DNA of 64,000 nucleotides from Minisyncoccia bacterium (GTDB lineage: Bacteria; Patescibacteriota; Minisyncoccia; Phycocordibacterales; UBA9973), in contig CBFHKH010000001.1 of the NCBI GenBank assembly GCA_965656375.1, positions 772,291 through 836,290 of the forward strand. The letters are read 5' to 3'. Under the pieces are notes generated by a model. It made no database searches. It was not told the DNA's origin and was given only the letters and a program-made list of their open reading frames with translations. Positions 6,330 to 33,235 of the stretch are shown here, piece by piece. Each line of letters begins with the position of its first letter. Position 1 is the first letter of the stretch. Position numbers and translations under genes: made by a program.

Positions 6330-6347
6330 ACAACTAAAATTCGTTAT

Positions 6348-7640
6348 CTAATTAGTAAATATAATCTGTACTGTTCGTGCAATAATACCTAAATCAAGAA
6401 ATATATTTCTATTTTTTATGTAATAGAGATCATATTCAAACTTTTCCTTTGAACCTTCTACTGTGTTTGCGTAATGATATTTAATCTGCGCCCATCCTGT
6501 AAAGCCTGGTTTGATTATATGACGTAATTCGTAATGTGTAATCGCACCTTCTAACTGCTCGACGAAGTGAGGACGCTCGGGTCTTGGTCCAACAAGAGAT
6601 AGATCACCTTTTATTATATTTATCATTTGTGGCAATTCATCTATATGTAGTTTTCTGAGTATCCTGCCGATAGGTGTGATGCGATCATCATCTTTAGTTG
6701 ACCATACCGCGCCATTTTTTTCAGATTCAATAATCATGGATCTTAATTTATATAATTTAAATACTTTTCCATTTAAGCCAACTCTTTTTTGAATATAAAA
6801 TATTGTGCCTCGATCGTATACATATACACAGAGTGCTCCTAATATCCATAACGGTGATGAAAGTATAAATATAATTATTGAGAAAACTACATCCATTAGC
6901 CTTGTGAGAAAATTATATCCGATATTTCCCTTTGTATTTATATTTTCTATAATCCACGACTGAGAAATGCAATCAACTGGTATTTTATAAAGATATCGCT
7001 CGTAGGCTTGCGCAATATCTATAATTTCAGTTTTATTCTTATATAACGTAACAATATCATTTCTAGGTATTTTATTTGACATACCTTCAATTATAAAAAC
7101 TGCATTTGTTATATGGGAGTATTTTTTCAGTGATTCATGTAAATCATTAGTGTACGAAATAACATTGAGGCCTATTTGAGGATTTTTTATGATAGTTTGA
7201 TGTAATTCTTCAAGGTAAGGAGTTACTCCGACTAAGATACCTGGTCTAGTTATCTGTTGTGAGAAAACAACATATACAAATCTTCTTAATAAAAAAGATA
7301 ATAATCCAAATCCTACAACCTGGAAAAGAAGATTTGTTTTAGGAGTAATGCCAAAAATTGGAACCAGATAAAAAAGAAGTATGCCTATAATAAGTGAAGT
7401 GATAAGTGCAAGAGAAAAGCGCCACAGGTGGGGTATCGTTGGTTTAATACTATATAAATCATAAAGCCCAAAAAGGAAGAACGATAGTACCCATGATAAG
7501 TACAGTATGATAAAAGGGATAGCATGAGTTCCTAACGCTGCCTGAAAGGAAGAATCTCCGAATCGTATATATAATATGACTATAAACGTGGTAAAAAATG
7601 CAACGAGATCTCCCAATACGATAAGCCAGACTCTGTTCAT
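6348..7640 (-). CDS. Polyprenyl-phosphate sugar phosphotransferase (bacterial sugar transferase, WbaP/PssY-like initiating enzyme)
   Basis: N-terminal TM helices plus a C-terminal Bac_transf domain with motifs KLRSM, DELPQ, GDLSLVGPRPE. 430 aa. Confidence 0.85.
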   Translation of the reverse strand: MNRVWLIVLGDLVAFFTTFIVILYIRFGDSSFQAALGTHAIPFIILYLSWVLSFFLFGLYDLYSIKPTIPHLWRFSLALITSLIIGILLFYLVPIFGITPKTNLLFQVVGFGLLSFLLRRFVYVVFSQQITRPGILVGVTPYLEELHQTIIKNPQIGLNVISYTNDLHESLKKYSHITNAVFIIEGMSNKIPRNDIVTLYKNKTEIIDIAQAYERYLYKIPVDCISQSWIIENINTKGNIGYNFLTRLMDVVFSIIIFILSSPLWILGALCVYVYDRGTIFYIQKRVGLNGKVFKLYKLRSMIIESEKNGAVWSTKDDDRITPIGRILRKLHIDELPQMINIIKGDLSLVGPRPERPHFVEQLEGAITHYELRHIIKPGFTGWAQIKYHYANTVEGSKEKFEYDLYYIKNRNIFLDLGIIARTVQIIFTN

Positions 7641-7726
7641 ATGGATATATAGTACTTAAATATTGATGTTTGGTAAAGGGAATATTTAATTAAAAAGCAA
7701 GGAAGACATTGATCTCCCTTGCTTAA

Positions 7727-8137
7727 TTATTCTACTAACATTCTGCGTAAATCAGACGAACGAATTACATTTTTGTAGTTGTGGCATATCTTGATCTTAC
7801 CTCCTTTAGATTTCATGTAAGCAATTTCTTCAGTTTTACTCTCTAGCCACTCTGGAGCAATCATGTACACATCTACCTCATATTTCTCCAACAACTTTAA
7901 GGGACTAAAATTGCGTGCCGGTACTACTTTATCTATATATCTAATTGATTCCAAAATCAACTTTTTATCTTTATAGGAAAGTAATGGTTTGCGTTGCTTA
8001 TAGAGTTTTATCAAACTCGGAGTATTCACTGCTACTATTAAATAATCTCCTTGCGCTTTCGCAAATCTGAATGCCCGTACGTGTCCTGAATTTAGTAGCT
8101 CAAATGCACCTTGGATAAAAACTACTTTCTTTTTCAT
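7727..8137 (-). CDS. Cytidylyltransferase-like nucleotidyltransferase (TagD / RfaE domain II-like)
   Basis: 136 aa with the (H/G)xGH-type motif GAFELLNSGH characteristic of the cytidylyltransferase family. Confidence 0.7.
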   Translation of the reverse strand: MKKKVVFIQGAFELLNSGHVRAFRFAKAQGDYLIVAVNTPSLIKLYKQRKPLLSYKDKKLILESIRYIDKVVPARNFSPLKLLEKYEVDVYMIAPEWLESKTEEIAYMKSKGGKIKICHNYKNVIRSSDLRRMLVE

Positions 8138-8310
8138 AAAATAACTGTTTTAGTTGCATAGGTTTTACCATATATAGCTTTGAGATTCAAGTGTACCTTG
8201 ATCATAGGGTATATATTGTTTGGAGCAGGTCTATATCTTACTTATTCCATTTGGTATACTATACATATAGTCGAAATCTTCATTATTAATTTTTTAAGCC
8301 AAATCAATTT

Positions 8311-9096
8311 ATGAATAAAATACTAAAGTTTTCAGTCGGTATATTTGTTGCTCTTGTTGCAGTTACTTCCTTTGCATCATATGCAAATGCAATGACGACA
8401 AGTGCAAGCAGTTGTGCCCAAGGTGCAGCATATGACACAGTTACTGGCAAAGCATGTGCAGACGTCACTATGAATCCACCGGTACTCGGATATGTTCCGT
8501 ACGGTTGTGACTATGGAGTAGGTACCGTGTACAGTCCAGAAACAGGGGAGTCATGTTCAGTGAACGGAGTTACGATTACACCTCCAATAGTTATGATGCC
8601 TCCGTATGATGCATATGGATGTAAAGTTGGTTCTCCATATAGTATGACAACAGGTGCAAAGTGCGCAGGATATACAACTTCTACATCTGGAGCAACTTCA
8701 GCAAGTGCAAATGGATGTACTCCAGGAGCGATGTACAGTACAACAACAGGTGCAAAGTGTACAACGACAAGTTCATCGTCTGCATATGATTGTACAGTAG
8801 CAAAGAATGCGTACTGCGCGGGTATGTCTTCTACAACAACAACTACTCCTCCAGCATGGATTCCACCAGTAAAAATTACTGCATCAAGTTCAGTAAGTGA
8901 TGTGATGACACTTCAAACTTCTTTGAATAAAGTTCTAGGTACTGAACTATCTACGTCACTCGTTGTTGATGGACGATACGGAGCAAAGACACGAGATGCG
9001 ATCCGAAAGTTCCAAATCAAGGCTGGCCTCAAAGCCGATGGCGTTGCTGGACCACTAACACTTGCTTCACTTAAGACAAGTGCATCAATACAGTAA
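8311..9096 (+). CDS. Secreted protein with Cys-containing short repeats and a C-terminal peptidoglycan-binding (PG_binding_1) domain
   Basis: N-terminal signal peptide. At least 4 repeats of Y-x3-TG-x2-C (YDTVTGKAC, YSPETGESC, YSMTTGAKC, YSTTTGAKC). C-terminal DGRYGAKTRDAIRKFQIKAGLKADGVAGPLT matches the PG-binding helical repeat. Confidence 0.6.
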   Translation: MNKILKFSVGIFVALVAVTSFASYANAMTTSASSCAQGAAYDTVTGKACADVTMNPPVLGYVPYGCDYGVGTVYSPETGESCSVNGVTITPPIVMMPPYDAYGCKVGSPYSMTTGAKCAGYTTSTSGATSASANGCTPGAMYSTTTGAKCTTTSSSSAYDCTVAKNAYCAGMSSTTTTTPPAWIPPVKITASSSVSDVMTLQTSLNKVLGTELSTSLVVDGRYGAKTRDAIRKFQIKAGLKADGVAGPLTLASLKTSASIQ

Positions 9097-9166
9097 ATAC
9101 AGAGCTAAAAAACACCCCAGCTGGGGTGTTTTTTAGCTCTGTATTCCTCTATGGTATACTATATAT

Positions 9167-9655
9167 ATGTTCAACAAACACCTCTTCAAAGTCATTATAG
9201 GGTTCTGCGGAATGATCATTCTCGGTCTTGTGTCCCTTGTTGTCATTGATCACTATAAGAACAAAGAGTCCTCTGAACAAGCGGTTCTCTATACTGCTAC
9301 TGAAGATACAAGTATTGGAAGTATTCATGCTCCGGAAGGTATGCCGAAACTTCCTCCAGAAGTTAAGCCGCTTTCATATCAGGATGCGCTCGCGCTTTAT
9401 ACGGGCCGAACAATCACATTTGATAAGGATTGTCGCGCAAATCCCGATCATACGTTTGTATTTAAAAATAACACCAAGGTTATGATCAATAACCTCTCTC
9501 CAGTATCGCGTACTATCAAGATAGAAAAGCCGATTAGTGTGAAAGGCAATGGCTTCAAGATTATAAACCTTGCAACTTCACAGAAATTACCGACAAAAAC
9601 TGTTCTCGAATGTGACACTATAAAAGGCGTCGCTAATATTACTCTTACGAAGTAA
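9167..9655 (+). CDS. Hypothetical membrane-anchored protein
   Basis: 162 aa with an N-terminal TM helix and a strong extended -10 (TGGTATACTATA) just upstream. The nested ORF 9228..9485 is ignored. Confidence 0.5.
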   Translation: MFNKHLFKVIIGFCGMIILGLVSLVVIDHYKNKESSEQAVLYTATEDTSIGSIHAPEGMPKLPPEVKPLSYQDALALYTGRTITFDKDCRANPDHTFVFKNNTKVMINNLSPVSRTIKIEKPISVKGNGFKIINLATSQKLPTKTVLECDTIKGVANITLTK

Positions 9656-9804
9656 TTATCTACACTGCTACTCTTCTTTTATTATACTGCTTGCAATATA
9701 TGCGTAAATTACAAGCAAACGGTAGTATTGATGGTATTGTAAAGTTTAATTTTAAATAATTGTTTTTTAACTATTCTTTAACTCCGAGATGCTACGCTCT
9801 TGGT

Positions 9805-12462
9805 ATGAAGAATAAAATCATACTAAGGATTTTGCTAGTAAGTATACTAAGTTTCTTATCAAACGATGTTTTTGCGGCTACAAACGTGTATTCTCAAGAG
9901 AATGATGATTCCGGTGTTATTACTCTCATTCCATTGAATACTGGCGCTGTGCTCGGTACTCCGATAGGATCTTTTACTCCATCTTCTGATATTGTAGTCG
10001 CACCCAATAAACCAATTTCTTTAACGGTTACATATAAAGGCGATCCAGGCGATACCAATGCAGATTTTTTTATTTGCATTTCTGATGTGTATGAGCCTGC
10101 GGGTCCCCTCACTCATATAACTAATTGTGGTTTTACTCATACCATTTCAGATATCTTTGAGACTCGAACTCTCTCTGCTTCTAGTTCATACACCTATAGG
10201 GCAGGTACGACATACTACGTCGAGATGGCACGCGACTGCTTCTATGGTTGTGGAACGTATTATCTTAAATCTGATGTTACTTTGTCTTCTTTTTATGGAC
10301 GAATAGATACGGTTGATCCTATTCCAGAATGCTGTTCCAGTGTTCTCTTTCTACCGGGAATTAAAGGTAGCATACTTCAATCCGGTCCTGATACGTTATG
10401 GCCTCCGACTGTGCTTAGTAATGACATACCACAGCTTGCACTGACGAACAGTGGAACAAGTATAAATGATGTTCATACTAATGGCATCTTAAATACATTC
10501 CACGGTACTCCTATATACGCGCCATTCTCGAGTTTTATGGATAGCCTTGTTGCCGATCAAACGATAACGGAGTGGCAGCCGATGGCATATGATTGGAGAC
10601 TTCCTCCTGAAGATTTGATTGCAAACGGTATAAAAACTGCTACAGGAACTAAAAATATTGTTGAGGAAATAGAAAAGCTCGCAGATCATTCAAAAAACGG
10701 AAAAGTATCGATAGTTGCACATTCTATGGGAGGCCTTATGGGAAAGGCAATTATCAAAAAGCTAGCAGAGGAAGGCAAAGATAGGATCATTGATTCTTTT
10801 GTCATGGTCGGTAGTCCGCAGCTTGGTACTCCACAGGCAATAGGAGGGATGCTCCATGGAGATCAGGAAGGAATTATACCTTTACTCATTGCGAATCCGG
10901 CGGACATGCGAGCAATAGCTCAAAATATGCCAAGTGCATATAATCTACTCCCGTCTTCTCGGTATTTTTCCGAGGTACCAGATCCTGTTATTACATTTGA
11001 TCCGGAAGCTACTTTTACGGAAGCATGGCGTAATTTCTGGGGATCAGTTATCAATACATATCCCGCATTCTCTTCTTTCGTGATGGGGACGGGTGTAGAA
11101 CGCATTAAGCCGGCACAGAATATTCTCCAAATTCCTGAAGTACTAAATCCAGGGCTACTAGCACGAGCTACTGATTTTCATACTTCATATGATACCTATC
11201 AATTCCCGTCGCATATCCGCGTGGTTCAAGTAGCCGGATGGGGTATATCAACGATCAAGGCTATTGAATATAGAAATAATCATGGAGTTCCAGGATACAA
11301 GGTCAATTTTACTATTGAAGGTGACAAGACCGTAGTATATCCAAGTGCAGTTTCATCTATAGCAGATGAAACATACTTTTTTAATCTATTTAATTTTAAT
11401 AAACTTTTGAATTCAAATACTCAACATCGAGACTTATTAAATTCAAATCCAATTCAGAATCTTGTTAAGTCGATTGTTAAGAATGAAAGTATTCAGATGA
11501 CTGATATTATTTCTAATGCGAAACCAACCACAGTTAATCGTGAAGACCAATTACTAGTGAGTACCTATTCTCCAGTTGTTCTTGGTGCATATGATCAGTT
11601 TGGAAATTTTACTGGTATCGATCCTAACCAAAATCTTTCCCTCGATATGCTTTCGATCAAGGAAGATATTCCGGGAAGTACGTTCCTCTATACAACTGAT
11701 AGCCAGCATATATTCCTCCCAAAGGAAGGGACCTATACTTTTATCTACAAAGGAATCGACAGTGGCCCTACTACTGTCACTGTCGAGAACTTTCAGACAA
11801 ATGTTGCTACCCCTATAAATTCGTATACCGATATTCCTACTACACCAAATACTACTGCAAAGTTCACCATACAAGCTGTAGCTCCCGAAGATATGACGAT
11901 AGCCCTCGATACCAATAGTGATGGCACTCCTGATGAGGTAGTACGTTCAGACGGAAGTATCCCATCACTTACTGAACTTATCACCTGTATCAAAGGAAAA
12001 CTATCTACGCTTGTTGTGAAAGATAAGCTAAAGCAAAACCTCATCAAACAGATATCAGCTCTTGAAAAGAAAATTGAGAACAAAAAAGAGAAAAACGCAA
12101 AGATACTCGCAAATCTAGAGGTTAAGATATCCAAGCAGGAAATGAAAGGAAAGATTAACACTGCTGATGCCTCGAGTATCACGAGCCTGCTTGATACTCT
12201 GGAGGCACAAGCAGAGAGCATCATACTTGATCCTCTGGTACTTCTTGATTTGAAAGCAAAAATACAATCTCTTACCATAAAGAATAATATTAAAAATGAT
12301 ATGCTAAAGCGAGTAGATACTCTTACCAAGAAGCAGGTAATAGTCCAAACACTGCATAATTTATCAAATAACATCACAAAGAAAGCTGGAAATGGCAAGA
12401 TCACAGAAGGGGATGCGCAAGCACTTCTTGATCTCCTTACTCAAGTTGAAAGCGTGATATAA
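9805..12462 (+). CDS. Secreted alpha/beta-hydrolase (lipase/esterase, GHSMGG nucleophile elbow; PGAP1/LCAT-like) with long C-terminal coiled coil
   Basis: Start is taken at MKNKIILRIL... (signal peptide); the track ORF begins earlier at a TTG. Lipase nucleophile motif VAHSMGGLMG. The last ~170 aa are heptad-rich (LKQNLIKQISALEKKIENKKEKNAKILANLE...). Confidence 0.65.
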   Translation: MKNKIILRILLVSILSFLSNDVFAATNVYSQENDDSGVITLIPLNTGAVLGTPIGSFTPSSDIVVAPNKPISLTVTYKGDPGDTNADFFICISDVYEPAGPLTHITNCGFTHTISDIFETRTLSASSSYTYRAGTTYYVEMARDCFYGCGTYYLKSDVTLSSFYGRIDTVDPIPECCSSVLFLPGIKGSILQSGPDTLWPPTVLSNDIPQLALTNSGTSINDVHTNGILNTFHGTPIYAPFSSFMDSLVADQTITEWQPMAYDWRLPPEDLIANGIKTATGTKNIVEEIEKLADHSKNGKVSIVAHSMGGLMGKAIIKKLAEEGKDRIIDSFVMVGSPQLGTPQAIGGMLHGDQEGIIPLLIANPADMRAIAQNMPSAYNLLPSSRYFSEVPDPVITFDPEATFTEAWRNFWGSVINTYPAFSSFVMGTGVERIKPAQNILQIPEVLNPGLLARATDFHTSYDTYQFPSHIRVVQVAGWGISTIKAIEYRNNHGVPGYKVNFTIEGDKTVVYPSAVSSIADETYFFNLFNFNKLLNSNTQHRDLLNSNPIQNLVKSIVKNESIQMTDIISNAKPTTVNREDQLLVSTYSPVVLGAYDQFGNFTGIDPNQNLSLDMLSIKEDIPGSTFLYTTDSQHIFLPKEGTYTFIYKGIDSGPTTVTVENFQTNVATPINSYTDIPTTPNTTAKFTIQAVAPEDMTIALDTNSDGTPDEVVRSDGSIPSLTELITCIKGKLSTLVVKDKLKQNLIKQISALEKKIENKKEKNAKILANLEVKISKQEMKGKINTADASSITSLLDTLEAQAESIILDPLVLLDLKAKIQSLTIKNNIKNDMLKRVDTLTKKQVIVQTLHNLSNNITKKAGNGKITEGDAQALLDLLTQVESVI

Positions 12463-12472
12463 TATAAATATT

Positions 12473-12871
12473 ATGAATCCAAAAAAAATATTAACCTCTT
12501 TTTTAATAATCTCTTTATTAGGAATATTAACTTCTTATTTAATTTTACATTCTAATCTAAATGCTGGTGTTACTGGCGAAATTTTAGTAAGACTCGGAAA
12601 AAGTTTATTTTACGGTATGTCTGCTTTGTCATTTATATTCTTAATTTTACTCTTTATACCTCGGGCATTTCCTGCATGGAAGAAATTTGCAATTTGGTTT
12701 ATTCCGTTGATGACGCTTCTCTTTGTCTTTTATCCTGATCCCGGGTCAGGCGACTATTTCTCTCCATATCCTGAACATATATTCCGATGGGTGAGCATCA
12801 TATATGTTTTGATCAGCCTGCTTATCATTTTATCGAATATGATTCGGAGAAAGCAGGCCTATTCTAGATAG
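12473..12871 (+). CDS. Small integral membrane protein (hypothetical)
   Basis: 132 aa with 3-4 hydrophobic helices. Confidence 0.45.
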   Translation: MNPKKILTSFLIISLLGILTSYLILHSNLNAGVTGEILVRLGKSLFYGMSALSFIFLILLFIPRAFPAWKKFAIWFIPLMTLLFVFYPDPGSGDYFSPYPEHIFRWVSIIYVLISLLIILSNMIRRKQAYSR

Positions 12872-14117: not shown

Positions 14118-14492
14118 ATGGCAAAATTTGATTCATTTTTAACAGAACTCGAAAGCGCTTCAGTTCTTGAGCTCAATGAGCTTGTGAAGGCTATCGAAGA
14201 AAAATTCGGTGTCTCAGCTGCAGCAGTTGCAGTTGCAGGTCCTGCCGCAGGCGGCGCAGCTGATGCTGGTGCTGAAGCGAAGGATGCATTCACTGTTGAA
14301 CTTACAGCAGCAGGCGATCAGAAGATTCCTGTTATGAAAGTCGTCAAGGAAGTTCTCGCGCTTGGTTTGAAAGAAGCGAAAGATCTCGTAGACGGAGCTC
14401 CTTCAGTCCTCAAAGAGGGTATGAAGAAAGCAGATGCTGAAGACTTCAAAAAGAAGCTTGAAGAAGCTGGTGCTAAAGTAACTCTTAAATAG
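14118..14492 (+). CDS. rplL: 50S ribosomal protein L7/L12
   Basis: 124 aa with the N-terminal dimerisation helix, an Ala/Gly-rich hinge ([18 protein letters not shown]) and a C-terminal domain ([22 protein letters not shown]...[13 protein letters not shown]). Confidence 0.92.
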
Positions 14493-14600
14493 AGTTACTT
14501 TAGAGTCGGAACTCGCGAAGGCGAGTGAGACGGGGTCGCGGAAATTCTCAGCAGAGAATTATCTGTGACAAGGTTACTCTTAAGTAATATTTTCCCACAC

Positions 14601-14629
14601 AAAAAACACCTCGAGAGAGGTGTTTTTTG
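14601..14629. terminator. Bidirectional rho-independent terminator (perfect palindrome)
   Basis: AAAAAACACCTC-GAGA-GAGGTGTTTTTT. Its 3' half is the first 12 nt of leader copy 1. Confidence 0.7.
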
Positions 14630-14734
14630 CTGCATATAATCTGACAATATGTTGTTTGATTTGTAAAGGAGTTTGTGGTAGGGTAGGTCTAAATTAAACC
14701 AAATTAAAAACTTAAAACTCTACAGTTATGAAAC
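14618..14734 (+). repeat. 117-bp leader repeat, copy 1 (TATAAT, ~90-nt UTR, ATG, first codons) in front of the AICARFT gene
   Basis: 100% identical to 15816..15932 on visual alignment. Confidence 0.8.
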
Positions 14735-15777
14735 GTACTTTAGTAGGAACACAAGCAGTAATCCTTCGCTATGGTGAAAATGCTCCACAGCAACCTGCGT
14801 ATTTGATGGAATTAGATACGGATGATCCACTGGCTTTACATACCTTTAAGATTCATGCAGGTAACCCCAGTATGATAAATTTTACTGATGTAGATTGCGG
14901 CCTCTCTACCATGACTCGCTTTGTAGCTGCACTGCTCAATGGTACTGGTGGAAAGTCTCCTTTGATGGCCCTTGGGCTTAAACATGGGAATGCATGTGGT
15001 GCATCATTTGATCTGGTTGATAAATCAAAAGCGATTACAAAAATGTTGGGTGGTAATCTGAAATCAATTTTTGGAGGTACCGTTATAACAAACTTTTACA
15101 TTGATGTTAAAGAAGCAAACCTATTGCAATCATATGGTACAGAAAAACCCCGGCCGCTTGATGTAGTTGTAGCAAGCGGTATTAGTGATGATGCGATCAA
15201 AATACTGCAAAGAAAAAATGACCGCTGTTTGATCTTAACGAACAAGCATCTTGGGTTTCTGGATAAAAGCAGTGTTGATACCAGTGTTCAATTCAGAAAA
15301 GTGAGAGGTGGCTGGATACAGCAACCTGCCCCAACTTTTATTCTTGATTTATCATCAGATGATGTTGTGAAATATCATCCGTGCGCATTTAAAGGTGATG
15401 CAACAGAAAAATATGACAACGATACGCTTTTAGCGTGGTCAATCTGTGCAACAAGCAATAGCAACACCATAACTCTGGTGAGAGATGGAATGTTGATCGG
15501 CAACGGTGTAGGCCAGCAGGATCGTGTTGAAGCAGTTGAACTTGCTATCAAGCGGGCGACAGATGCAGGACATGATATACATGGTGCCGTAGCAGCAAGC
15601 GATAGTTTCTTTCCATTTCCTGATGCTCCTACAGAATTGATTGCTGCAGGTGTACGTAGGATTTTTGCAACCTCAGGTTCGGTAAATGATAAAGCTATCA
15701 TTGAACTTTTTATTGATGAAGATTGTGAACTTATTCATATTCCGGATTCTATCGGGCGTGGATTTGCAAAGCACTAA
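14728..15777 (+). CDS. purH: AICAR transformylase, stand-alone AICARFT domain of PurH (no IMP-cyclohydrolase/MGS domain)
   Basis: Matches the E. coli PurH C-terminal half: LRYGENAPQQPAY vs MRYGENSHQQAAFY, LKHGNACGAS vs VKHANPCGVA, and the C-terminal ASDSFFPFPD...SGSVND vs ASDAFFPFRD...GGSIRD. At 349 aa it starts directly in the AICARFT domain. Confidence 0.85.
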   Translation: MKRTLVGTQAVILRYGENAPQQPAYLMELDTDDPLALHTFKIHAGNPSMINFTDVDCGLSTMTRFVAALLNGTGGKSPLMALGLKHGNACGASFDLVDKSKAITKMLGGNLKSIFGGTVITNFYIDVKEANLLQSYGTEKPRPLDVVVASGISDDAIKILQRKNDRCLILTNKHLGFLDKSSVDTSVQFRKVRGGWIQQPAPTFILDLSSDDVVKYHPCAFKGDATEKYDNDTLLAWSICATSNSNTITLVRDGMLIGNGVGQQDRVEAVELAIKRATDAGHDIHGAVAASDSFFPFPDAPTELIAAGVRRIFATSGSVNDKAIIELFIDEDCELIHIPDSIGRGFAKH

Positions 15778-15815
15778 ATGTACTTTATTTTTTTTAAAAG
15801 CATCTCTTTAATAGG

Positions 15816-15932
15816 AGGTGTTTTTTGCTGCATATAATCTGACAATATGTTGTTTGATTTGTAAAGGAGTTTGTGGTAGGGTAGGTCTAAATTAAACCAA
15901 ATTAAAAACTTAAAACTCTACAGTTATGAAAC
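15816..15932 (+). repeat. 117-bp leader repeat, copy 2, in front of the putative purO
   Basis: Identical to copy 1 through the ATG and 'AAAC'. Confidence 0.8.
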
Positions 15933-16660
15933 AATTTGAACGTGGAAGTGCTGATGAAAATTTAGCAGCACTTGCGAAGAATACTTATCCTGGAAGAATT
16001 ATTATGGTAGGCAGGGATAAAAGTAGTGATAACCTTGTCCAAGCGTATGCTATTATGGGCCGCAGTGCAAATAGCAGGAACCGTCTTTTTGTAAAAGATG
16101 AATTTGGGTTCATTAGTACTACACCTGCAGATGCAACCAAGGTAGAAGACCCAAGTCTAATCATCTATAAAGCAATGGTTCACCGTGATTCAATCCATGT
16201 AGTAAGTAACGGCCATCAAACAGAAGACGCAGCTAAGGCAACTCTACTTCAGGCAGGATTAAGCGGATGGACATATGAACCTGATTTTCCCAACAATACC
16301 CCCCGTATCACGGCATCATTTGACCTTGGCCGTGACTATCCTTTGTTTGCCAGTATGGCCATTTTAAAAAAGTCTCCGTTTTCGGAGGTGTGCGACAAGC
16401 ATTTCTACGAATTAGATGTTTCAAAGCAGGGTATTGGTTATTGTTTCCATACGTACGAAAATGATGGAAACCCGCTCCCTTCATTTTCCGGGGATCCGTA
16501 TTTAGTACCACTTTCTGGTGATAACAGTAAAGCTGTTGCGGAAAATATCTGGAGTTATCTGAATGAAGAAAACCGGATATCACTGGTAGTAAAGTTTATA
16601 AACTTCATGTCAGGCGGTGTTTCAACTCACATCATTAATAAGTATGAAGTTGTTGTATAA
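15926..16660 (+). CDS. purO: Putative archaeal-type IMP cyclohydrolase PurO (NTN-hydrolase fold)
   Basis: 244 aa. N-terminal GRIIMVGRDKSSDNLVQAYAIMGRSANSRNR and later VVSNGHQTEDAA resemble, from memory, the archaeal PurO pattern (GRxxxVGR...A(Y/F)...S(R/N)S...NR ... V(V/S)NGxxT). Adjacent to the AICARFT gene and sharing its leader. Confidence 0.6.
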   Translation: MKQFERGSADENLAALAKNTYPGRIIMVGRDKSSDNLVQAYAIMGRSANSRNRLFVKDEFGFISTTPADATKVEDPSLIIYKAMVHRDSIHVVSNGHQTEDAAKATLLQAGLSGWTYEPDFPNNTPRITASFDLGRDYPLFASMAILKKSPFSEVCDKHFYELDVSKQGIGYCFHTYENDGNPLPSFSGDPYLVPLSGDNSKAVAENIWSYLNEENRISLVVKFINFMSGGVSTHIINKYEVVV

Positions 16661-16679
16661 TATACATCATTCCATTTTT

Positions 16680-16705
16680 AAAAGCTCTCTTTTGGGAGCT
16701 TTTTC
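16680..16705 (+). terminator. Rho-independent terminator after purO
   Basis: AAAAGCTCTC-TTTT-GGGAGCTTTTT. Confidence 0.5.
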
Positions 16706-16772
16706 TATGCCTACTGATCTTGGTGTGAGGGGTTGATAGGGCGCGGGACTTGGCGTATACTAGACCCTATAT

Positions 16773-17390
16773 ATGGAAACACTAGCAAAGCTATTTGGCG
16801 GTCAGGCCCGAGTTAGAATCATGCGTCTTTTCCTTTTGAACAGCATGACGACGTTCGATATTGATGATATTACTAGTCGTAGTCGTGTGACGAAAGTAAA
16901 TGCACGTAAGGAAGTGAATGCGCTCTCTGCGATGGGATTCATAAAGCCAAAGACTCTCGTACGCGAAGGTTCTCGCGGCGGCAAGAAAAAGGTTTCTGGA
17001 TGGCAGCTTGATCCATCTTTCCAATATCTCGAAGCGATCCGCAATCTTCTCATCGATCCGAACTTGCTCCTTCAAGACGACCTCGCGTCACGCTTCAAGC
17101 CAATCGGCAAGATCAAGCTTATGATCGTATCAGGCGTATTTATCGGTGATTCGGAAAGCCGTGTCGATGTGCTGCTCGTAGGGGACAAGCTCAAGAAGAA
17201 TGTCCTTCAGCAGGTGATCAAGGGTCTCGAAGCTGAAATCGGCAAGGAACTCGACTATGTAGTCTTTGATTCTGAGGAATTCAGATACCGTATGGATATG
17301 TATGACAAGCTCGTATGCGACGTCATAGATCTGCCCCATGAGAAGCTCATAGACAACGGACAGTTATCCACATACATCTCTAAGAAATAG
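16773..17390 (+). CDS. Hypothetical protein (possible winged-helix N-terminus)
   Basis: 205 aa with extended -10 TGgcGTATACT upstream. No catalytic motif recognised. Confidence 0.45.
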   Translation: METLAKLFGGQARVRIMRLFLLNSMTTFDIDDITSRSRVTKVNARKEVNALSAMGFIKPKTLVREGSRGGKKKVSGWQLDPSFQYLEAIRNLLIDPNLLLQDDLASRFKPIGKIKLMIVSGVFIGDSESRVDVLLVGDKLKKNVLQQVIKGLEAEIGKELDYVVFDSEEFRYRMDMYDKLVCDVIDLPHEKLIDNGQLSTYISKK

Positions 17391-18427: not shown

Positions 18428-18923
18428 TGAAAAGGCATCGATATGATATTTGAAAACTGAATGCTGTTCCGACTCGCTGTTATCCTAACAATTTTTGTCA
18501 GGGTCTTTTCATTAGAGTCGGAAACAGAACGCAATGATAATTTAAGTCGTACACCTATCAGAGGAAGCGGTTCCCGAGGATAGGTGCGGTCATCATGTTT
18601 TAAATTTATTTAGAGCATGATGGTTTTCAGATTTCCTAATAGGAAATTAAGAGTATATGGCGGATGCCTAGACTAAAAAAGGCGATGAAAGACGCAGCAT
18701 GGCGGCGATACGTTTCGGGGAGGTGCCTAGCAACCTTTGATCCGGAAATTTCTGAATGGGGAAACCCACGTGTGTAAACCATACGTACGTTCATGCTTGA
18801 CATGAATGAGCATACCCAGGGAAGTAAAACATTTCAGTACCTGGAGGAAAAGAGAAAAATATTTATTTTCTAAGTAGCGGCGAGCGAAAAGGAAAGAGCC
18901 CAAACCGGCCTATCACACTGAAT

Positions 18924-19011
18924 GGGATAGCTTCTAGCACTTAGCTTTTAGCCTGTAGCAAATGCATTTGTATTTTGCTAGTGGCTAGCTGCTAATCGCT
19001 AATTGCTATCC
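18924..19011 (+). repeat. Palindromic 'GCAATTAGCC' element, copy B, forming an expansion hairpin in 23S domain I
   Basis: GGGATAGCTTCTAGCACTTAGCTTTTAGCCTGTAGCAAATGCATTTGTATTTTGCTAGTGGCTAGCTGCTAATCGCTAATTGCTATCC. Flanked by the complementary CCGGCCTATCACACT / AGTGTGATTGGCCGG. Core TAGCAAATGCATTTGTATTTTGCTA is near-identical to copy C. Confidence 0.55.
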
Positions 19012-19239
19012 TTGGTAGTGTGATTGGCCGGGGTTGTAAGGTGACAATGTAGATTTATCTAGAGAAGTTACAAATTGTGTTGTTAGATTAATCTTCTGGA
19101 AAGGAGAGCCGCAGACGGTGATAGCCCGGTGATCGAAAATTTCACAACTTCTTGGTTGTCATTCTTGAGTAACTCAAGACACGAATAGCTTGAGCGAATC
19201 CACCAGAACTAACTGGTAAGGCTAAATACTTTTTTAGAT

Positions 19240-19282
<43 letters not shown>

Positions 19283-19860
19283 GATGAGGGGAGTGAAATA
19301 GACCTGAAACCATATACTTACAAGGAGTCGGAGCGGGCATTTATGTCCGTCACGGCGTGCCTATTGAAGAATGAGCCAACGAGTTTATCTATGCTGCAGG
19401 CTAAGCTGCTAGAACAGTGGAGCCTTAGGGAAACCGAGTGTTAATAGCGCGAACAATTAATGTAGTATAGATAAGACCCGAAGCGAGGTGAGCTTGCCAT
19501 GAGCAGGATGAACCCTGTCGAAAGATGGGGGGAGGTCCGAACCGGTGACCCGTGCAATAGTCTCGGATGACTTGTGGTAAGGAGTGAAAAGCTAATCGAA
19601 CCTCGTAATAGCTGGTTCTCTCCGAAATAGCTTTAGGGCTAGCGTTGCGTGTTCCTCTTGGGGGTAGAGCACTGGAAGGTTTCGACAGGGAGCAATCTCG
19701 CGACACCTATCAAACTCCGAATACCAAGAGTTAAAACGCAGCAGTTAGGCTATGGGGGCGAAGCTCCATCAGCCAAAAGGGAAACAGCCCAGATCTCTAA
19801 TTAAGGTCCCAAAATTTACGCTAAGTGCAAAACAAGGAGGTGAAATTTCTCTGACAGTGA

Positions 19861-19892
<32 letters not shown>

Positions 19893-20708
19893 GAAAGCGT
19901 AACAGCTCACTCACTAAGAGATTTCGCACCGAAAATAATCGGGGCTAAGCGTAGTACCGAAATTGAGGGCTTTGGATTTCTTCGGAAATCGCAAAGCGGT
20001 AGGAGAGTATTCCACTCAGCGACGAAGGGAAAGGGGTGACCCATCCTGGAGCGTGTGGAAGTAAGAATGTTGGCACAAGTAACCGCAAGGAAGGTGAGAT
20101 CCCTTCCCGCCGAAAGATTAAGGGTTCCTTGGCAATGGTGATCATCCAAGGGTTAGTCGGTCCTAAGGGGATGGCGAAAGCCGCACCTGATGGGCATAGG
20201 GTTAATATTCCCTAACTTCTGTTGTATCCGATGATAGGACGGAGTGTAGTATACAAAGCTCATTATTGGATTTGAGTTTGTGAGTAAGGGTGCTCTCCAG
20301 GAAAATCCGGAGAGTCGCGTAAAAGCAACACCCAAGCAGAGCATAAATGTGTGGGTTCGCCCATGTAGATTTTATAAAGCACGCTTCCAAGAAAAGTATC
20401 TAAGGTTAATGCAATAGAAACCGTACCGTAAACCGACACAGGTAATCAGGTCGAGTAGACCAAGGCGAACGAGTGAGAGGTCTTCAAGGAACTCGGCAAA
20501 AAAGCAGCCGTAACTTTGGAATAAGGCTTGCCATTCTAAATTTATTTAGTTTGGCCGCAGCGAAAGTATCTCTGGCAACTGTTTATCAAAAACACAGCTC
20601 CCTGCGAACTCGCAAGAGGATGTATAGGGGGTGACGCCTGACCAATGCCAGAAGGTCAACTATCGGTGGTGTGTGGAGCAATCTACATGCTGGCTGATAT
20701 AAGCCCTG

Positions 20709-20743
<35 letters not shown>

Positions 20744-20956
20744 TTTGCATTTCAATGAAAGTTGGAATGCAAAGCGGACTAGGACAGGTTATAGAAAACG
20801 ATAAACAATTAATAAGAATATTTCAGGAACCATTTTAAGCTACCTAATAGTACAGTAATGTATTATTAGTCCACACTTGATGAACGAGAGACCAACGTCA
20901 AGCATCCCACCCCGCACGGGAGGATGAAGATAGAGTCCTTCTTAGGGGTACAGAAG
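20744..20956 (+). mobile_element. 213-nt intervening sequence in 23S at the E. coli 1917-equivalent site; putative small ORF-less group I intron
   Basis: Interrupts GGTCCTAAGGT | AGCGAAgTaCCTTGTCGGG. The 5' exon ends in U and the insert ends in G. It contains an S-like element GAAGATAGAGTCC (P7 3' strand) and an upstream GGACTAGG that can pair with it. Confidence 0.5.
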
Positions 20957-21619
20957 AGCGAAGTACCTTGTCGGGTAAGTTCCGACGCGCACGAATGGCG
21001 TAATGACTGGAGAACTGTCTCGAAGACCTGCTCGGTGAAAATACAATACCGGTGAAGATGCCGGTTACCTGCAGATAGACGAAAAGACCCTAGAAGCTTT
21101 ACTGCAGCTTGATATTGAGCATGTTGTTATACTGCGTAGCATAGGTGGGAGAGGTTATACGTACGATTTCGGTTGTGCGGTACTCGTCAGTGAAATACCA
21201 CTCTGTGTGATGACATGTTCTAATCTCTACGGCAAAAACGGAGAGAGACAGTATCTGGTGGGTAGTTTTACTGGGGCGGTATCCTCCTAAAAAGTAACGG
21301 AGGAGTTTATTAAGGTTAGCTAGGCGCGAATGGAAACCGTGCCGATAGTGTAATGGCACAAGCTAGCTTAACTGTAAGACGTACTTGTCGAGCAGATACG
21401 AAAGTAGAACATAGTGAACCGACATTTCGCATTAGATGCGGATGAAGATTAACGGATAAAAGCTACTCTAGGGATAACAGGCTAGTTCCGCCTAAGAGTT
21501 CATATCGACGGCGGAGTTCGGCACCTCGATGTCGGCTCACCTTATCCTGGTGGTGGAGAAGCTGCCAAGGGTTTAGCTGTTCGCTAATTAAAAAGGTACG
21601 CGAGCTGGGTTCAAACCGT

Positions 21620-22017
21620 TGAGTAGCCGTTGGCAACTAGCAATTAGCCTTTAGCAAATGCATTTTGTATTTCGCTAATGGCTAGTAGCTAAACGCTAAC
21701 AGCTATTGAACAGTTTGAACCAATTGAGGAACAAGAAAAAGGAAACTTTTATCTAACTGTTTTAATCTGAGATTAAGACCATGCACACAGTAGTGTGTCA
21801 CGGCGGTGTAGTACAGAAATGTATTATATGAAGTTCACTTATATCGGTGGAACCCCATGCGGGCAATACCGAGGGAAGTCACAAGACGCCCGTAGAGACT
21901 GAATGTGAACCATCTCGCTAAATTTATTTTGAGATGATGTTACAGTCCGATCCCATTAGTAATAATGGTTCTGATAGTTTTACCAAACGCGAAACTATTG
22001 GAAGTAAAACATAGATG
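21620..22017 (+). mobile_element. 398-nt intervening sequence in 23S near the E. coli 2593-equivalent site; putative ORF-less group I intron carrying element copy C
   Basis: Interrupts GAGCTGGGTTCAAACCGT | CGTGAGACAGGTTGGTCTCCTATC. The 5' exon ends in U and the insert ends in G. R-like GTAGAGACTGAATG and S-like ATGTTACAGTCC elements are present. No ORF. Confidence 0.5.
21633..21707 (+). repeat. Palindromic 'GCAACTAGCAATTAGCC' element, copy C (inside the second 23S intervening sequence)
   Basis: GCAACTAGCAATTAGCCTTTAGCAAATGCATTTTGTATTTCGCTAATGGCTAGTAGCTAAACGCTAACAGCTATT. Confidence 0.55.
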
Positions 22018-22069
22018 CGTGAGACAGGTTGGTCTCCTATCTACTGCAGGCGTTGATTCTTGAGAAGAT

Positions 22070-22100
<31 letters not shown>

Positions 22101-22417
22101 TGACCTCTGGTGTGAGGGCTCTAGTGCCAACTGGACTGCCCTGTAGCTATGTCGGGAATGGATAACCTCTGAAAGCATCTAAGAGGGAAGCCAGCTTCAA
22201 GATGAGGAATCGTTTGAGAAACCTAAGAGATGATTAGGTTGATAGGCACTAGGTGTACGCACAGTAATGTGTTCAGCCAAGGTGTACTAATCGTTCGATT
22301 CCTATTAGGAAATGTGGAAATCATTTGTCATTGCGTTTACAGCATTCAGTTTTCAGGTATCATATGCCGAGTTATGACTTGGTTTACATACTTGAAAACT
22401 TAATTTGAATTTTTTGT

Positions 22418-22524
22418 TCTGGTGATTTGGTACTGGGGTCACACCCGATCACATTCCGAACTCGGAAGTTAAGCCCATCTACGCCGATGATACTCTTTAG
22501 GGGAAAGTAGGTTGTCGCCAGAAC
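22418..22524 (+). rRNA. rrf: 5S ribosomal RNA
   Basis: TCTGGTG...CACACCCGATCACATTCCGAACTCGGAAGTTAAGC...GCCGATGATAC...GGGAAAGTAGGTTGTCGCCAGAA. Helix I closure TCTGGTG/CGCCAGA. 118 nt after the 23S. Confidence 0.8.
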
Positions 22525-22775: not shown

Positions 22776-23282
22776 ATGTTTAATTTCAATAGAATCCAAA
22801 AACAGGAAAAACCTATAGTTAGCGCACAAGAAAAGACTCAAGAGCAATTTGATAAAGAGATTATTGAAGAAACAGATAAGCTCAACCTTAACTTAACTGA
22901 GCTTAAAAATGATATTGATACATATGGTGGAGTTGAAAATATTAAAGAAAAGATTGCTAATTTAGTTGAGTCAGAAGAAGAAGGTAAGACTCTAGTAAAA
23001 GGAGGTATAGGGCTTAGCGCAGTATTTGGTGCTATTACTGTACTTGAAGTCGTTGCTCAGTTAGATCAAAGTCAATCAAGCTTTTTTGAATATCTAAGAG
23101 AAAATAGTATAGGTGGAAATGCAGGTCTTACGGCATTTGTTACGGGAATGTTAACCCTTATTCCTTTGATAGCAACAATTACATCAAAATTCGATAACCG
23201 TAAAATTAGAAAGCAAATAGAAGAGGAAGAGGTGGGGTTAGTATTGAAAACTGGTGGATACCAAGGCAAAAAAATGGGGTAA
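22776..23282 (+). CDS. Hypothetical protein with an acidic coiled-coil N-terminus and a hydrophobic central segment
   Basis: 168 aa, followed by a terminator hairpin at 23303-23332. Confidence 0.45.
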   Translation: MFNFNRIQKQEKPIVSAQEKTQEQFDKEIIEETDKLNLNLTELKNDIDTYGGVENIKEKIANLVESEEEGKTLVKGGIGLSAVFGAITVLEVVAQLDQSQSSFFEYLRENSIGGNAGLTAFVTGMLTLIPLIATITSKFDNRKIRKQIEEEEVGLVLKTGGYQGKKMG

Positions 23283-23302
23283 AGATCTTTAATTGTAATA
23301 TA

Positions 23303-23332
23303 AAAATCCACTCAATATTTGAGTGGATTTTT
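23303..23332 (+). terminator. Rho-independent terminator
   Basis: AAAATCCACTC-AATATT-GAGTGGATTTTT. Confidence 0.6.
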
Positions 23333-23408
23333 ATATCTGACTTTTTCCTCGGTAATGGTAATCTCAAATAAAGCATCTATCTACCTTTCACCCCTAAAAC
23401 AACACGTT

Positions 23409-23942
23409 ATGAGTACATGTAAAAATCTTTCTCAGATATCTGTATTTATAAAAAATCAGATAAAAGTATTACTCTCTACTTTTCAAAATTCAAAAAATGT
23501 TTCACTTGCCCTTGGACTATATAACCAGACGTTATATGGAGAAGAATTGTTTAGTGTTTTTAAACCTGACTTCTCAGTAAGCGCTATGCCTGAAACTTTT
23601 ATTGAACAGAAAGTGCAACATTATTTAAATTGTTCACGTGATCTTGTATCAGTAAGTTTATTTAATGAAACCATGCCGACTGACTATGAAATTTTTGCTA
23701 CAATGTATGTTTTTCATGCAGAAGCATGTTTTCAATTGCAGTTTATGAAAGCACTCAAGAGAGACGGAGATATCCAAGAGTTTACGTATACCGAAGGAAG
23801 GATACACCATAAATATCCTTTTAGCGATATACGATTTGATTGGGAAGAGGGAGTAACAAACCTCATTGCTTCTGTGAAAGAAGCAATCTCTGTTACAGAA
23901 TCTTTTATTGCCAGTAAATGTGGAGCTGCAATAGCTGCGTGA
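23409..23942 (+). CDS. Hypothetical protein
   Basis: The track ORF starts inside the upstream terminator, so the start is moved to an internal Met (MSTCKNLSQ...). No domain recognised. Confidence 0.3.
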   Translation: MSTCKNLSQISVFIKNQIKVLLSTFQNSKNVSLALGLYNQTLYGEELFSVFKPDFSVSAMPETFIEQKVQHYLNCSRDLVSVSLFNETMPTDYEIFATMYVFHAEACFQLQFMKALKRDGDIQEFTYTEGRIHHKYPFSDIRFDWEEGVTNLIASVKEAISVTESFIASKCGAAIAA

Positions 23943-23955
23943 TTCTAATATTTTT

Positions 23956-23988
23956 TAAAAAGCCTGATGGTAACATCAGGCTTTTTTT
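23956..23988 (+). terminator. Rho-independent terminator
   Basis: AAAAAGCCTGATG-GTAA-CATCAGGCTTTTTTT. Confidence 0.6.
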
Positions 23989-24004
23989 GATAGTATATAC
24001 GTAT

Positions 24005-24781: not shown

Positions 24782-24786
24782 TTGCT

Positions 24787-25905: not shown

Positions 25906-25909
25906 TTAT

Positions 25910-27261: not shown

Positions 27262-27273
27262 AATAACCCTATT

Positions 27274-29566: not shown

Positions 29567-29586
29567 AAAATCTCTTATTTTAAGAC

Positions 29587-29616
29587 AAAAAGCTCCTAGA
29601 CATCTAGGGGCTTTTT
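29587..29616 (+). terminator. Rho-independent terminator after secF
   Basis: AAAAAGCTCCTAGA-CAT-CTAGGGGCTTTTT. Confidence 0.55.
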
Positions 29617-29630
29617 GTTATACTTATTGT

Positions 29631-29834: not shown

Positions 29835-29861
29835 AATTATCATTAAATATCTTAACTATAT

Positions 29862-30410: not shown

Positions 30411-30413
30411 ATT

Positions 30414-31498: not shown

Positions 31499-31563
31499 AT
31501 TAAAAAACATGTGGGCATCTTTGTCAATATTTGGTTTTTTTGATATACTGTATCTATAAAGAT

Positions 31564-32445: not shown

Positions 32446-32453
32446 TTTTTACT

Positions 32454-33229: not shown

Positions 33230-33235
33230 CATCTA

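Follow-up and report, generated by a model that had tools for sequence, protein, structure and literature searches.

An apparent in-place truncation of purH next to a PurO-family gene behind a second, identical copy of the purH leader in a Minisyncoccia bacterium

Between rplL and orf205, the 64-kb stretch of DNA from a Minisyncoccia bacterium analysed here (the window) carries two genes predicted to serve the last two steps of purine synthesis, purV and purO, each preceded by one copy of a direct repeat, R. The features of the locus, together with folD as context, are as follows.

14118-14492, + strand: rplL (L7/L12), upstream anchor; ORF; the rplL of 60+ related loci is 75-87% identical at the amino acid level
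14601-14628, + strand: rplL intrinsic terminator T1, AAAAAACACCTC-GAGA-GAGGTGTTTTTT; R1 opens with its 3' arm and T-run, 12 nt at 14617-14628
14617-14734, + strand: repeat copy 1 (R1), consisting of terminator 3' arm, apparent native purH promoter, 5' UTR and ATGAAAC; 100% identical to copy 2
14656-14684, + strand: predicted promoter in R1; -35 TTGATT at 14656-14661, 17-nt spacer, extended -10 TGgTAGGGT at 14676-14684
14728-15777, + strand: purV (ORF1), AICAR formyltransferase domain only, 349 aa, PF01808 only; apparently the native purH minus MGS/IMPCH by in-frame deletion
15796-15826, + strand: hybrid terminator 3' of purV; left arm AAAAGCATCTCTT like the left half of the backbone terminator, T1-type right arm that opens R2
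15815-15932, + strand: repeat copy 2 (R2) upstream of purO; same predicted promoter (-35 at 15854-15859, -10 at 15877-15882), 5' UTR and ATGAAAC
15926-16660, + strand: purO (ORF2), PurO family, predicted IMP cyclohydrolase of the bacterial clade, 244 aa; PF07826, AF2 fold match 2NTM
16680-16703, + strand: backbone terminator t, AAAAGCTCTC-TTTT-GGGAGCTTTT; precedes the orf205 promoter
16773-17390, + strand: orf205, downstream anchor, possible winged-helix protein; 69-84% identity across 85 loci, weak Sta1/Lrs14 HTH matches
25886-26740, + strand: folD (context); PF00763 and PF02882

R is a direct and perfect repeat of 118 nt with a spacing of 1198 and the sole perfect long repeat in the window. 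Its 61-nt core gave two exact matches in the window compared to none in 100 shuffles. Both copies open with a terminator hairpin's 3' arm, GAGGTG-T6, and close with ATGAAAC, i.e. the start codon and four nucleotides of the next gene; each contains a TATAAT (14635-14640 in copy 1). A first-pass annotation of this DNA had reported an identical leader of 117 nt in front of both genes, with the 3' half of the rplL terminator inside copy 1, and had pointed out that recombination between the copies would remove the AICARFT gene. All of this was borne out except for the length, which is 118 nt.

The protein encoded by purV was searched for the domains of bifunctional PurH. It matched PF01808 with an E-value of 6e-38 (profile positions 73-311 of 311), no PF02142 match indicative of an MGS domain was obtained at E ≤ 0.1, and the alignment to the PurH profile was confined to positions 208-492 of 510, in line with the AICARFT-only protein announced in the first-pass annotation. 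The top homologues were Patescibacteria proteins of 535-550 aa with both MGS and AICARFT domains, with 64% and 63% identity at a query coverage of 99%. In BLASTP, residues 5-349 of purV corresponded to residues 196-540 of a 540-aa PurH (P0123) with 63% identity. The alignment (A5) showed the initial MK of purV joined straight to the inter-domain linker and retention of the KH motif along with other columns that are invariant. K85 and H86, which we take to be the catalytic Lys-His pair known from ATIC, and 90+ further columns were invariant in 10 homologues, fused and stand-alone. The start of purV coincides with a natural domain boundary, as independent homologues of 335-364 aa begin within a few residues of it. 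One of these, the 364-aa protein of locus L089, consists of the PurH N-terminus MEKKNTLLS fused to the linker and represents a second, independent deletion of the MGS domain at the same site. Because purO does not adjoin the L089 gene, loss of the domain does not require a neighbouring purO; the L089 genome may carry purO elsewhere.

The site itself varies among relatives. In 68 metagenomic loci with both anchors the rplL-orf205 gap was empty in 55, held a stand-alone IMPCH gene in three and other inserts in ten; in addition, orf205 was adjoined by purH/AICARFT or purB in five cut contigs. The P0123 locus reads rplJ-rplL-purH-orf205-MSchannel and the P0122 locus rplL-purB-purH-orf205, with rplL of the latter found by tblastn. 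Locus L085 has purO alone at the site. The promoter region of this purO is not R-like, thus R has not always been the leader of purO. The nearest relatives share only about 80% DNA identity with the window; the window is more similar to the purO-bearing L085 in the upstream flank and to the purH-bearing L083 in the downstream flank. There was no second tandem like that of the window among 85 related loci.

The origin of R became apparent from the relatives that carry purH. R was 84-85% identical to the region upstream of purH in L083 over 106-123 nt, with 67-80% in the adjacent coding DNA. Searches of 170 loci by blastn and nhmmer found R-like sequence upstream of purH in L083 and L084 and nowhere else, and an exact-pattern scan of metagenome contigs with the leader core TTGATTTRTARNNNNNTNTGTGRTAGNGTA yielded 0 matches. 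By its homology R is the native promoter and leader of purH. Because purV shares locus, leader and 63-64% identity with the full-length PurH of relatives, we concluded that it is, as far as comparison can tell, the lineage's own purH without codons ~3-192, which were removed in frame.

The conserved element of the leader is a promoter. TTGATT-17-TG(g/a)TAG(G/T)GT occurs twice in the window and at orthologous positions in L083 and L084, where the extended -10 elements read TGaTAGGGT and TGaTAGTGT, respectively; L089 has TTTACA-17-TGaTAAAA at the same position. Similar promoter forms precede the purB, purO and purJ cargo genes. We predict that this sigma-70-type extended -10 promoter at 14656-14684 is in use and is followed by an A-rich, unstructured 5' UTR of about 37-40 nt. 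The first-pass annotation had proposed the TATAAT as promoter box with a 5' UTR of ~90 nt. The box is indeed present in both copies, but it is not conserved in relatives, and the conserved promoter sits 40 nt further downstream, which argues against the long UTR; the TATAAT at 14635 may be a second start. Several other candidate signals were discarded. A putative dedicated pur promoter motif, TTTRTGNTAGNNT, occurs only three times in the window, yet it is an ordinary extended -10 element of the TRTG form, and because rplJ has the same form the notion that a dedicated regulator binds here was dropped. An upstream ORF (MLFDL, 14649-14666), the start of which is not conserved, and an AAGGAG at 14666 were rejected as translation signals on account of their position, which is either 5' of the conserved promoter or within it.

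Both genes are bounded by hairpins. T1 (MFE -18.7 kcal/mol, z -6.6) is conserved in L083 and L085. The backbone terminator t (MFE -12.8 kcal/mol) is common to all site variants, being located 3' of purH in L083 and L084 and 3' of purO in L085. The hybrid terminator between purV and purO (MFE -12.9 kcal/mol, z -4.9) combines the two: in its left half it can be aligned to the backbone terminator, and an additional A there strengthens the pairing with the right arm of T1. Because of this terminator purV and purO are predicted to be two monocistronic units with identical signals for transcription and translation initiation.

The product of purO matched PF07826 with 128.4 bits at a cut-off of 28.1 and covered profile positions 1-189 of 192, consistent with its first-pass assignment as PurO-like. 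With the archaeal PurO equivalogs TIGR01922 and NF003167 it reached 26.7 and 34.7 bits compared to cut-offs of 158 and 150, and the N-terminal half alone aligned. ORF2 is thus placed outside the archaeal equivalog. It belongs to a separate, large bacterial clade (PMC6486802), with 4387 homologues, many of them from Patescibacteria. An AF2 model of ORF2 (pLDDT 91.3, pTM 0.90) had the NTN-hydrolase-like four-layer PurO fold; the best PDB match was 2ntm_D, a PurO (E 1.7e-11, TM 0.64/0.75), followed by proteasome subunits and acylases with E > 1e-3. Like archaeal PurO (TIGR01922; PDB 2NTK/2NTL/2NTM) the protein belongs to PF07826 and has PGR, GRSxNSRNR, SNGxQT, YExD and TPRI motifs, and the profile alignment with 2NTK showed GR, RS..R, VSNG..T, YE.D and TPRI in common. 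Unlike the archaeal proteins, to which it is 21% identical, it has about 40 extra C-terminal residues. Ten of 14 active-site residues of the PurO from M. thermautotrophicus are reported to be identical in bacterial PurOs (PMC6486802). We found no assay of a bacterial PurO in the published literature searched. Homology and gene context suggest that PurO converts FAICAR to IMP, and that PurV would produce FAICAR from AICAR using 10-formyl-THF.

The matches listed from a search of genome contigs with the PurO profile were mostly from Firmicutes with 40-49% identity and included the Clostridial order purO-purV; close relatives were absent among them, and 80 loci taken from these matches showed no synteny with the window. 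PurO genes of the Falkowbacteria type (P0003, P0006) lie in unrelated neighbourhoods with no adjoining AICARFT gene, and the context of P0128 is likewise unrelated.

The replacement of purH by purV and purO is known from other bacteria, where the pair anticorrelates with purH (Cruz et al. 2019, Genome Biol Evol, PMC6486802); CPR bacteria are absent from that survey. The window resembles this pair in having a stand-alone AICARFT gene and a bacterial-clade purO with no IMPCH (MGS) domain in the region, and the two genes adjoin as they do in several of the Firmicutes. On the other hand, Clostridia have the order purO-purV and a purV that is only ~25% identical to that of the window. Furthermore, the window's purV looks as if the lineage's own purH had freshly been truncated in frame, and the two genes of the window are predicted to be transcribed separately, each from one copy of the duplicated promoter/leader. 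In comparison with bifunctional PurH/ATIC (TIGR00355) the AICARFT half is homologous throughout and keeps KH and the invariant positions, and purV has the leader and locus of the relatives' purH; what it lacks is residues ~3-192, so that both the MGS-like IMPCH domain and PF01808 positions up to ~72 are missing.

Taken together, we consider it probable that the native purH lost its IMPCH domain in place and that an exact copy of the purH promoter/leader came to precede the purO gene that replaces it. The rplL-orf205 gap is a variable site that often holds genes of late purine synthesis. In the ancestor it presumably contained a bifunctional purH (MGS/IMPCH plus AICARFT), equipped with a promoter, a short A-rich leader and a terminator of its own. 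Loss of codons ~3-192, i.e. of the whole IMPCH domain, would have left promoter, leader and start (M-K) untouched and turned the gene into a stand-alone purV, with a PurO-family gene placed directly downstream behind an exact second copy of promoter, leader and start. Because the expression signals are identical, PurV (AICAR to FAICAR) and PurO (FAICAR to IMP) should be made in parallel and would substitute for one fused protein.

The duplication may have arisen by a single unequal or illegitimate crossover between two terminator hairpins, e.g. one from a version of the site with purH and one from a version with purO, after which the redundant IMPCH domain would have been lost. The structure of the junction fits such a crossover. 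Direct repeats that flank one gene, and a novel junction within a terminator hairpin with intact homology of the outer flanks, are shared with cases in which a promoter is captured through tandem duplication or unequal crossover and with homology-facilitated illegitimate recombination in transformable bacteria. Unlike in such duplications, the units of the window carry unrelated genes, and the mechanism is read from the anatomy of the junction alone. The mixed similarity of the flanks, moreover, is the opposite of what the simplest two-parent crossover would leave. With the nearest relatives at the distance given above, the crossover as well as the order of purO gain, R duplication and MGS loss are tentative.

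That the two copies of R are perfectly identical is due either to a recent event or to gene conversion. In the latter case the tandem could be old, its R copies homogenised, and the relatives with purH or purO only would be deletion derivatives of a tandem ancestor. This is possible, but we regard it as rather unlikely. It would account for the presence of either gene at the same site between the same terminators, recombination between the copies would yield rplL-R-purO, and the extra A in the left arm of the hybrid terminator suggests that there was time for adjustment. On the other hand, the purO promoter region of L085 is not R-like; furthermore, the tandem of the window is the only one among the 85 loci, and 0 differences in 118 nt are equally expected from a recent event. 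As a tentative and rather doubtful extension of the truncation in place, the rplL-orf205 gap of this CPR clade might be a recombination hot spot at which self-contained purB, purH, purV, purJ and purO modules come, go and recombine between related strains through crossovers in terminator hairpins with no dedicated recombinase. A module in this sense is composed of a terminator half, promoter, A-rich leader, gene and terminator half, and the 118-nt duplication would be the footprint of a recent module capture. If so, module capture enabled PurO to take the place of the IMPCH domain in PurH, and the identical leaders would enforce the matched expression that was formerly provided by gene fusion.

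It had also been proposed that the leader could harbor a ligand- or protein-responsive RNA that co-regulates both genes. A riboswitch, an attenuator or a protein-binding element with a response to ZMP, purines or folate would be of this kind. The leader precedes purine genes, its conservation in L083 is no less than that of the neighbouring genes, and perfectly identical copies would suit a shared sensor. Yet the recommended Rfam scan for ZTP/pfl, purine and other riboswitches (cmscan, E ≤ 10, 14400-16800) gave no relevant match for the leader, and a scan of the whole window at gathering thresholds retrieved 23S, 5S and one tRNA and nothing else. The leader folded no better than shuffled sequences with an MFE z of +0.54, and downstream of the conserved promoter values of +1.39 and +1.03 indicated even less structure. 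Thus, there was no riboswitch signal. The best-conserved blocks are the -35 and extended -10 elements, and the mini-ORF ATGTTG...TAA is not conserved, its start being ATC in L083. The three homologous leaders are too few for covariation analysis. We consider a regulatory RNA very unlikely.

Horizontal acquisition of an archaeal-type two-gene module for the conversion of ZMP to IMP, inserted after rplJL as the first-pass annotation suggested, is most unlikely. The site is empty in most relatives, the fold of PurO matches that of the archaeal enzyme, and stand-alone AICARFTs of 335-349 aa with ~50% identity exist in other phyla. However, the closest relatives of the AICARFT are full-length PurH proteins of Patescibacteria from the same rplL-orf205 site with the same leader, and the MK-linker junction together with the independent deletion in L089 indicates truncation in place. 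PurO misses the archaeal cut-offs (27-35 compared to 150-158 bits) and is surrounded by thousands of bacterial homologues. The identity ranking already points to the Patescibacteria PurH clade for the AICARFT and to the bacterial clade for PurO, and the base composition does not stand out from that of the flanks. What stands of the original description is the split AICARFT and PurO-like pair behind identical leaders; the archaeal-type, acquired origin is supported for neither gene.

An assembly artefact or population mixture, be it a collapsed or mis-joined repeat, an excised R-purV circle or an amplified array, is extremely unlikely: De Bruijn contigs do break at R, so that short reads alone leave the copy number unfixed, but in an independent assembly of run ERR15116721 (Logan contigs), which fixes junctions and says nothing on the copy number of R-purV, the rplL contig (to 14646), the purV contig (14705-15844) and the purO contig (from 15903) have their breakpoints exactly 30 nt (k-1) into R, so that reads support all four junctions including that of the purV 3' flank to R, with R attached to unique sequence at either end of the purV contig, rplL-to-R and R-to-purO junctions present, the assembled order as the only linear path through all four edges, a good terminator at the R junction and both genes intact.

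The pairing of the two enzymes was known before, and the window is a clear evolutionary snapshot that reveals neither a new pathway nor a riboswitch or other new regulatory RNA in the leader. Its value lies in a rare non-orthologous displacement with visible steps, in which a bifunctional gene appears to have lost a domain in place on two independent occasions in related genomes, and next to the window's truncated gene lies that of an unrelated enzyme for the lost reaction under copied expression signals. This would be context evidence, in the manner of a natural experiment, for bacterial PurOs acting as IMP cyclohydrolases. It also illustrates how a bacterium with a small genome may build a new transcription unit via duplication of a promoter/leader. 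For annotation it is of use because these PurH-like CPR proteins are labelled 'hypothetical' in public records.

FolD makes 10-formyl-THF, the co-substrate of AICARFT. No pur genes besides folD were present among 20 flanking ORFs scanned (929-12871 and 22776-34861). Membership of the Patescibacteria/CPR is suggested by the source names of the homologues and by the 23S rRNA of the window, which contains insertions of ~750 nt. As a separate observation, a structured, covarying RNA is located at the 3' end of rplL, for which no Rfam family was retrieved at E ≤ 10.

The locus between rplL and orf205, a conserved 205-aa ORF, is an in-place truncation of a native purH combined with a bacterial PurO, and as such varies an arrangement that is already known. 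Its worth lies in showing clearly, as an evolutionary snapshot, how a domain is displaced and a promoter duplicated. The Pfam searches with PF01808, PF02142 and PF07826 that the first-pass annotation had proposed returned AICARFT without MGS for ORF1 and IMP_cyclohyd for ORF2, which confirmed the predicted split AICARFT/PurO pair by domain content. The features of the locus are:

14601-14628, terminator T1, after rplL, MFE -18.7 kcal/mol
14617-14734, copy 1 of the repeat R, before purV
14728-15777, ORF1 (purV), 349 aa, PF01808 (AICARFT) as the sole Pfam match, profile positions 73-311
15796-15826, hybrid terminator, after purV, MFE -12.9 kcal/mol
15815-15932, copy 2 of R, before purO
15926-16660, ORF2 (purO), 244 aa, PF07826 (IMP_cyclohyd), 128 bits
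16680-16703, backbone terminator t, before the orf205 promoter, MFE -12.8 kcal/mol

An MGS domain was not detected in ORF1 by Pfam profile search. The nearest homologues of ORF1 were PurH-type MGS+AICARFT proteins of Patescibacteria with 535-550 aa (64% and 63% identity, 99% query coverage). Stand-alone enzymes as the closest relatives of purV were ruled out because the best matches are these fused proteins. The two best homologues are encoded at the window's own chromosomal site, in the related loci L083 and L084, where the neighbouring orf205 and channel proteins share 79-91% identity with their window counterparts:

L083, rplJ-rplL-purH-orf205-MS channel
L084, rplL-purB-purH-orf205-MS channel, rplL found via tblastn

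BLASTP aligned residues 196-540 of PurH with residues 5-349 of window purV, and in the multiple alignment 'MK' is fused straight onto the inter-domain linker. In L089 (rplL-purB-purV-orf205) a 364-aa protein carries the PurH N-terminus 'MEKKNTLLS' fused to this linker, with the junction placed a few residues before that of the window protein. Window purV and the L089 protein are thus two resident purH genes that lost the IMPCH domain in frame and independently of each other. All invariant AICARFT columns, the Lys-His pair among them, were kept. Nine full-length MGS+AICARFT proteins of Patescibacteria (P0139, P0185, P0194, P0195, P0207, P0210, P0225, P0230 and P0233) carry the NCBI label 'hypothetical protein', which probably reflects under-annotation of purH in CPR bacteria.

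The PurO-like nature of ORF2 was upheld by its PF07826 score and by its predicted fold. The confident AF2 model (pLDDT 91) had archaeal PurO 2NTM as by far the best PDB match (E 1.7e-11, TM 0.64/0.75), and the main PurO motifs were kept in a profile alignment to 2NTK. Against the archaeal PurO equivalog models it stays below cut-off. Homologues numbered 4387 at E<=1e-5, many of them from Patescibacteria and named IMP cyclohydrolase at NCBI. The closest (57% identity) came from L085/L086, which have the order rplJ-rplL-purO-orf205-channel at the same site as the window, lack an AICARFT gene and differ in the promoter region. An archaeal-type import, as first proposed, did not hold: purV is a native purH truncated in place and PurO is bacterial. 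A distinct PurO clade exists in bacteria, sharing 10 of 14 active-site residues with archaeal PurO, and in about 5% of bacterial genomes purH is replaced by purV/purO and purV/purJ (Cruz et al. 2019, PMC6486802). Among the loci retrieved, those of Clostridia have purO followed by purV, the latter about 25% identical to window purV. Because purV/purO is already present in that study and in the Clostridial loci, the enzyme pairing is known. We infer activity for bacterial PurO.

The two copies of R are 100% identical within the window. The shared leader before both genes was thus correctly recognized by the first-pass annotation, with a measured length of 118 instead of 117 nt, and its repeats were rightly regarded as deletion-prone. 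The 64-kb window contains no third copy, nor would chance predict one. Both copies begin with GAGGTG-T6, i.e. the 3' arm of a terminator hairpin and its T-run, and end with ATGAAAC, which comprises the start codon and the next four bases of the gene behind. At the read level, the contigs of an independent de Bruijn assembly (Logan, run ERR15116721) matched the locus exactly and broke at R with 30-nt overlaps (end of the rplL contig 14646; purV contig 14705-15844; start of the purO contig 15903). Therefore all four junctions are present in the reads, which speaks against the assembly artefact initially considered. The assembled tandem is the only linear path through these junctions; the contigs give junctions, not copy number.

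R is 84-85% identical over 106-123 nt to the region 5' of full-length purH in L083, compared to lower identities of 80% for rplL, 78% for orf205-channel and 67% for purH. A similar region is recognisable 5' of purH in L084; therefore R is purH's own promoter and leader. The blocks that the window shares with L083/L084 read, in the window, TTGATT for the -35 box (14656-14661) and TGgTAGGGT for the extended -10 box (14676-14684), with a spacer of 17 nt; the aligned position in L089 reads TTTACA-17-TGaTAAAA. The TATAAT box suggested earlier (14635-14640) reads TCTAAC in L083 and is without a -35 box in copy 2. Instead of a 5' UTR of about 90 nt, the conserved promoter predicts an A-rich one of about 37-40 nt, which lacks a Shine-Dalgarno sequence, as do other genes here. 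The predicted UTR folded less well than shuffled controls (z +1.4 and +1.0), and the whole leader no better than shuffles (z +0.54). The Rfam scan of the leader, with ZTP, purine and other riboswitch models, gave no match at E<=10. From prediction and conservation we conclude that R probably acts as a promoter plus plain translation-initiation region and not as a ligand- or protein-responsive sensor.

All three hairpins of the locus fold strongly. Terminator t lies 3' of purH in L083 and L084 and of purO in L085, so that t is part of the site and not of one gene. The hybrid terminator has a left arm like the left half of t (AAAAGC[A]TCTCTT) and a T1-type right arm, which opens copy 2 of R. This composition gives the layout rplL - T1L.T1R - R - purV - tL.T1R - R - purO - tL.tR - orf205. 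It could have come from one crossover, unequal or illegitimate, in which the loops of T1 and t recombined, e.g. of a purH-bearing with a purO-bearing version of the site; similarities of the flanks are mixed and point to no particular parents.

With orf205 as anchor, 80 metagenomic loci (L092-L171) were retrieved, 68 with both rplL and orf205. The gap was empty (<320 nt) in 55 of the 68. Three (L107, L144, L157) held a stand-alone IMPCH of 191-193 aa with MGS and the start of PF01808, i.e. purJ. Other inserts were found in ten: two gaps of 435-480 nt and eight with ORFs of 269-345 aa (L092, L099, L118, L119, L129-131, L140), which had no significant Pfam match and one sub-threshold match to Mob_Pre (L118). 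Five further end-cut contigs had purH/AICARFT (3) or purB (2) immediately 5' of orf205. Including L083-L089, gap contents were purH, purB+purH, purB+purV, purO, purJ or purV+purO; among L083-L089 and the metagenomic loci, the purV+purO pair and the duplicated leader occurred in the window only. The anchor orf205 (16773-17390) is 69-84% identical in every relative and always adjoins the variable site. It has its own promoter (TTGATA-17-TATACT), an almost leaderless start and no Pfam family; weak winged-helix matches (Sta1/Lrs14) covered residues 19-61. It could be a regulator.

Between the rplL stop codon and T1 lies a structured element of about 100 nt (14472-14571) with three helices and no Rfam match at E<=10. 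In 14 sequences, 20 of 35 consensus pairs showed compensatory double changes, and 98.7% of cells were paired; the corresponding values were 84% for shuffles and 34-42% for slid controls. In helix 1 the final rplL codons and the stop codon pair with the 5' arm of the element. Beyond the window it occurs in L085, L093, L104, L106, L108, L109, L113, L114, L121, L134, L137, L140, L145, L163, L166 and L169. Behind it, 12-13 of 17 loci repeat the last five codons of rplL and the stop as a relic second copy (K-V-T-L-K-stop; window 14570-14587), which suggests an insertion that brought a replacement gene end. Stand-alone copies of the RNA core exist in two relatives (L113, 12151-12243, minus strand; L128, 11487-11579, minus strand), some 6 kb away from the rplL site and behind a terminator. 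They scored 59-62 bits with model R1 and differ in the first hairpin; no ORF of at least 50 aa lies downstream in L113. They may represent a small RNA gene or else a mobile element.

No further pur genes were found among 20 flanking ORFs scanned (929-12871 and 22776-34861). Located 9 kb downstream of the locus is folD, which supplies 10-formyl-THF. The 23S rRNA (18637-22523) spans 3673 nt versus a 2925-nt model and thus carries about 750 nt of insertions, as is typical of CPR bacteria; a 5S gene lies behind it, with no 16S nearby within the window. A 2406-aa ORF (45744-52964) contains internal 289-nt repeats with 88% identity (46177/46834), and a 72-nt repeat family occupies 58.6-63.2 kb. The repeat-bearing ORFs at 45744-52964 and 56-63 kb probably encode repeat-domain surface proteins.
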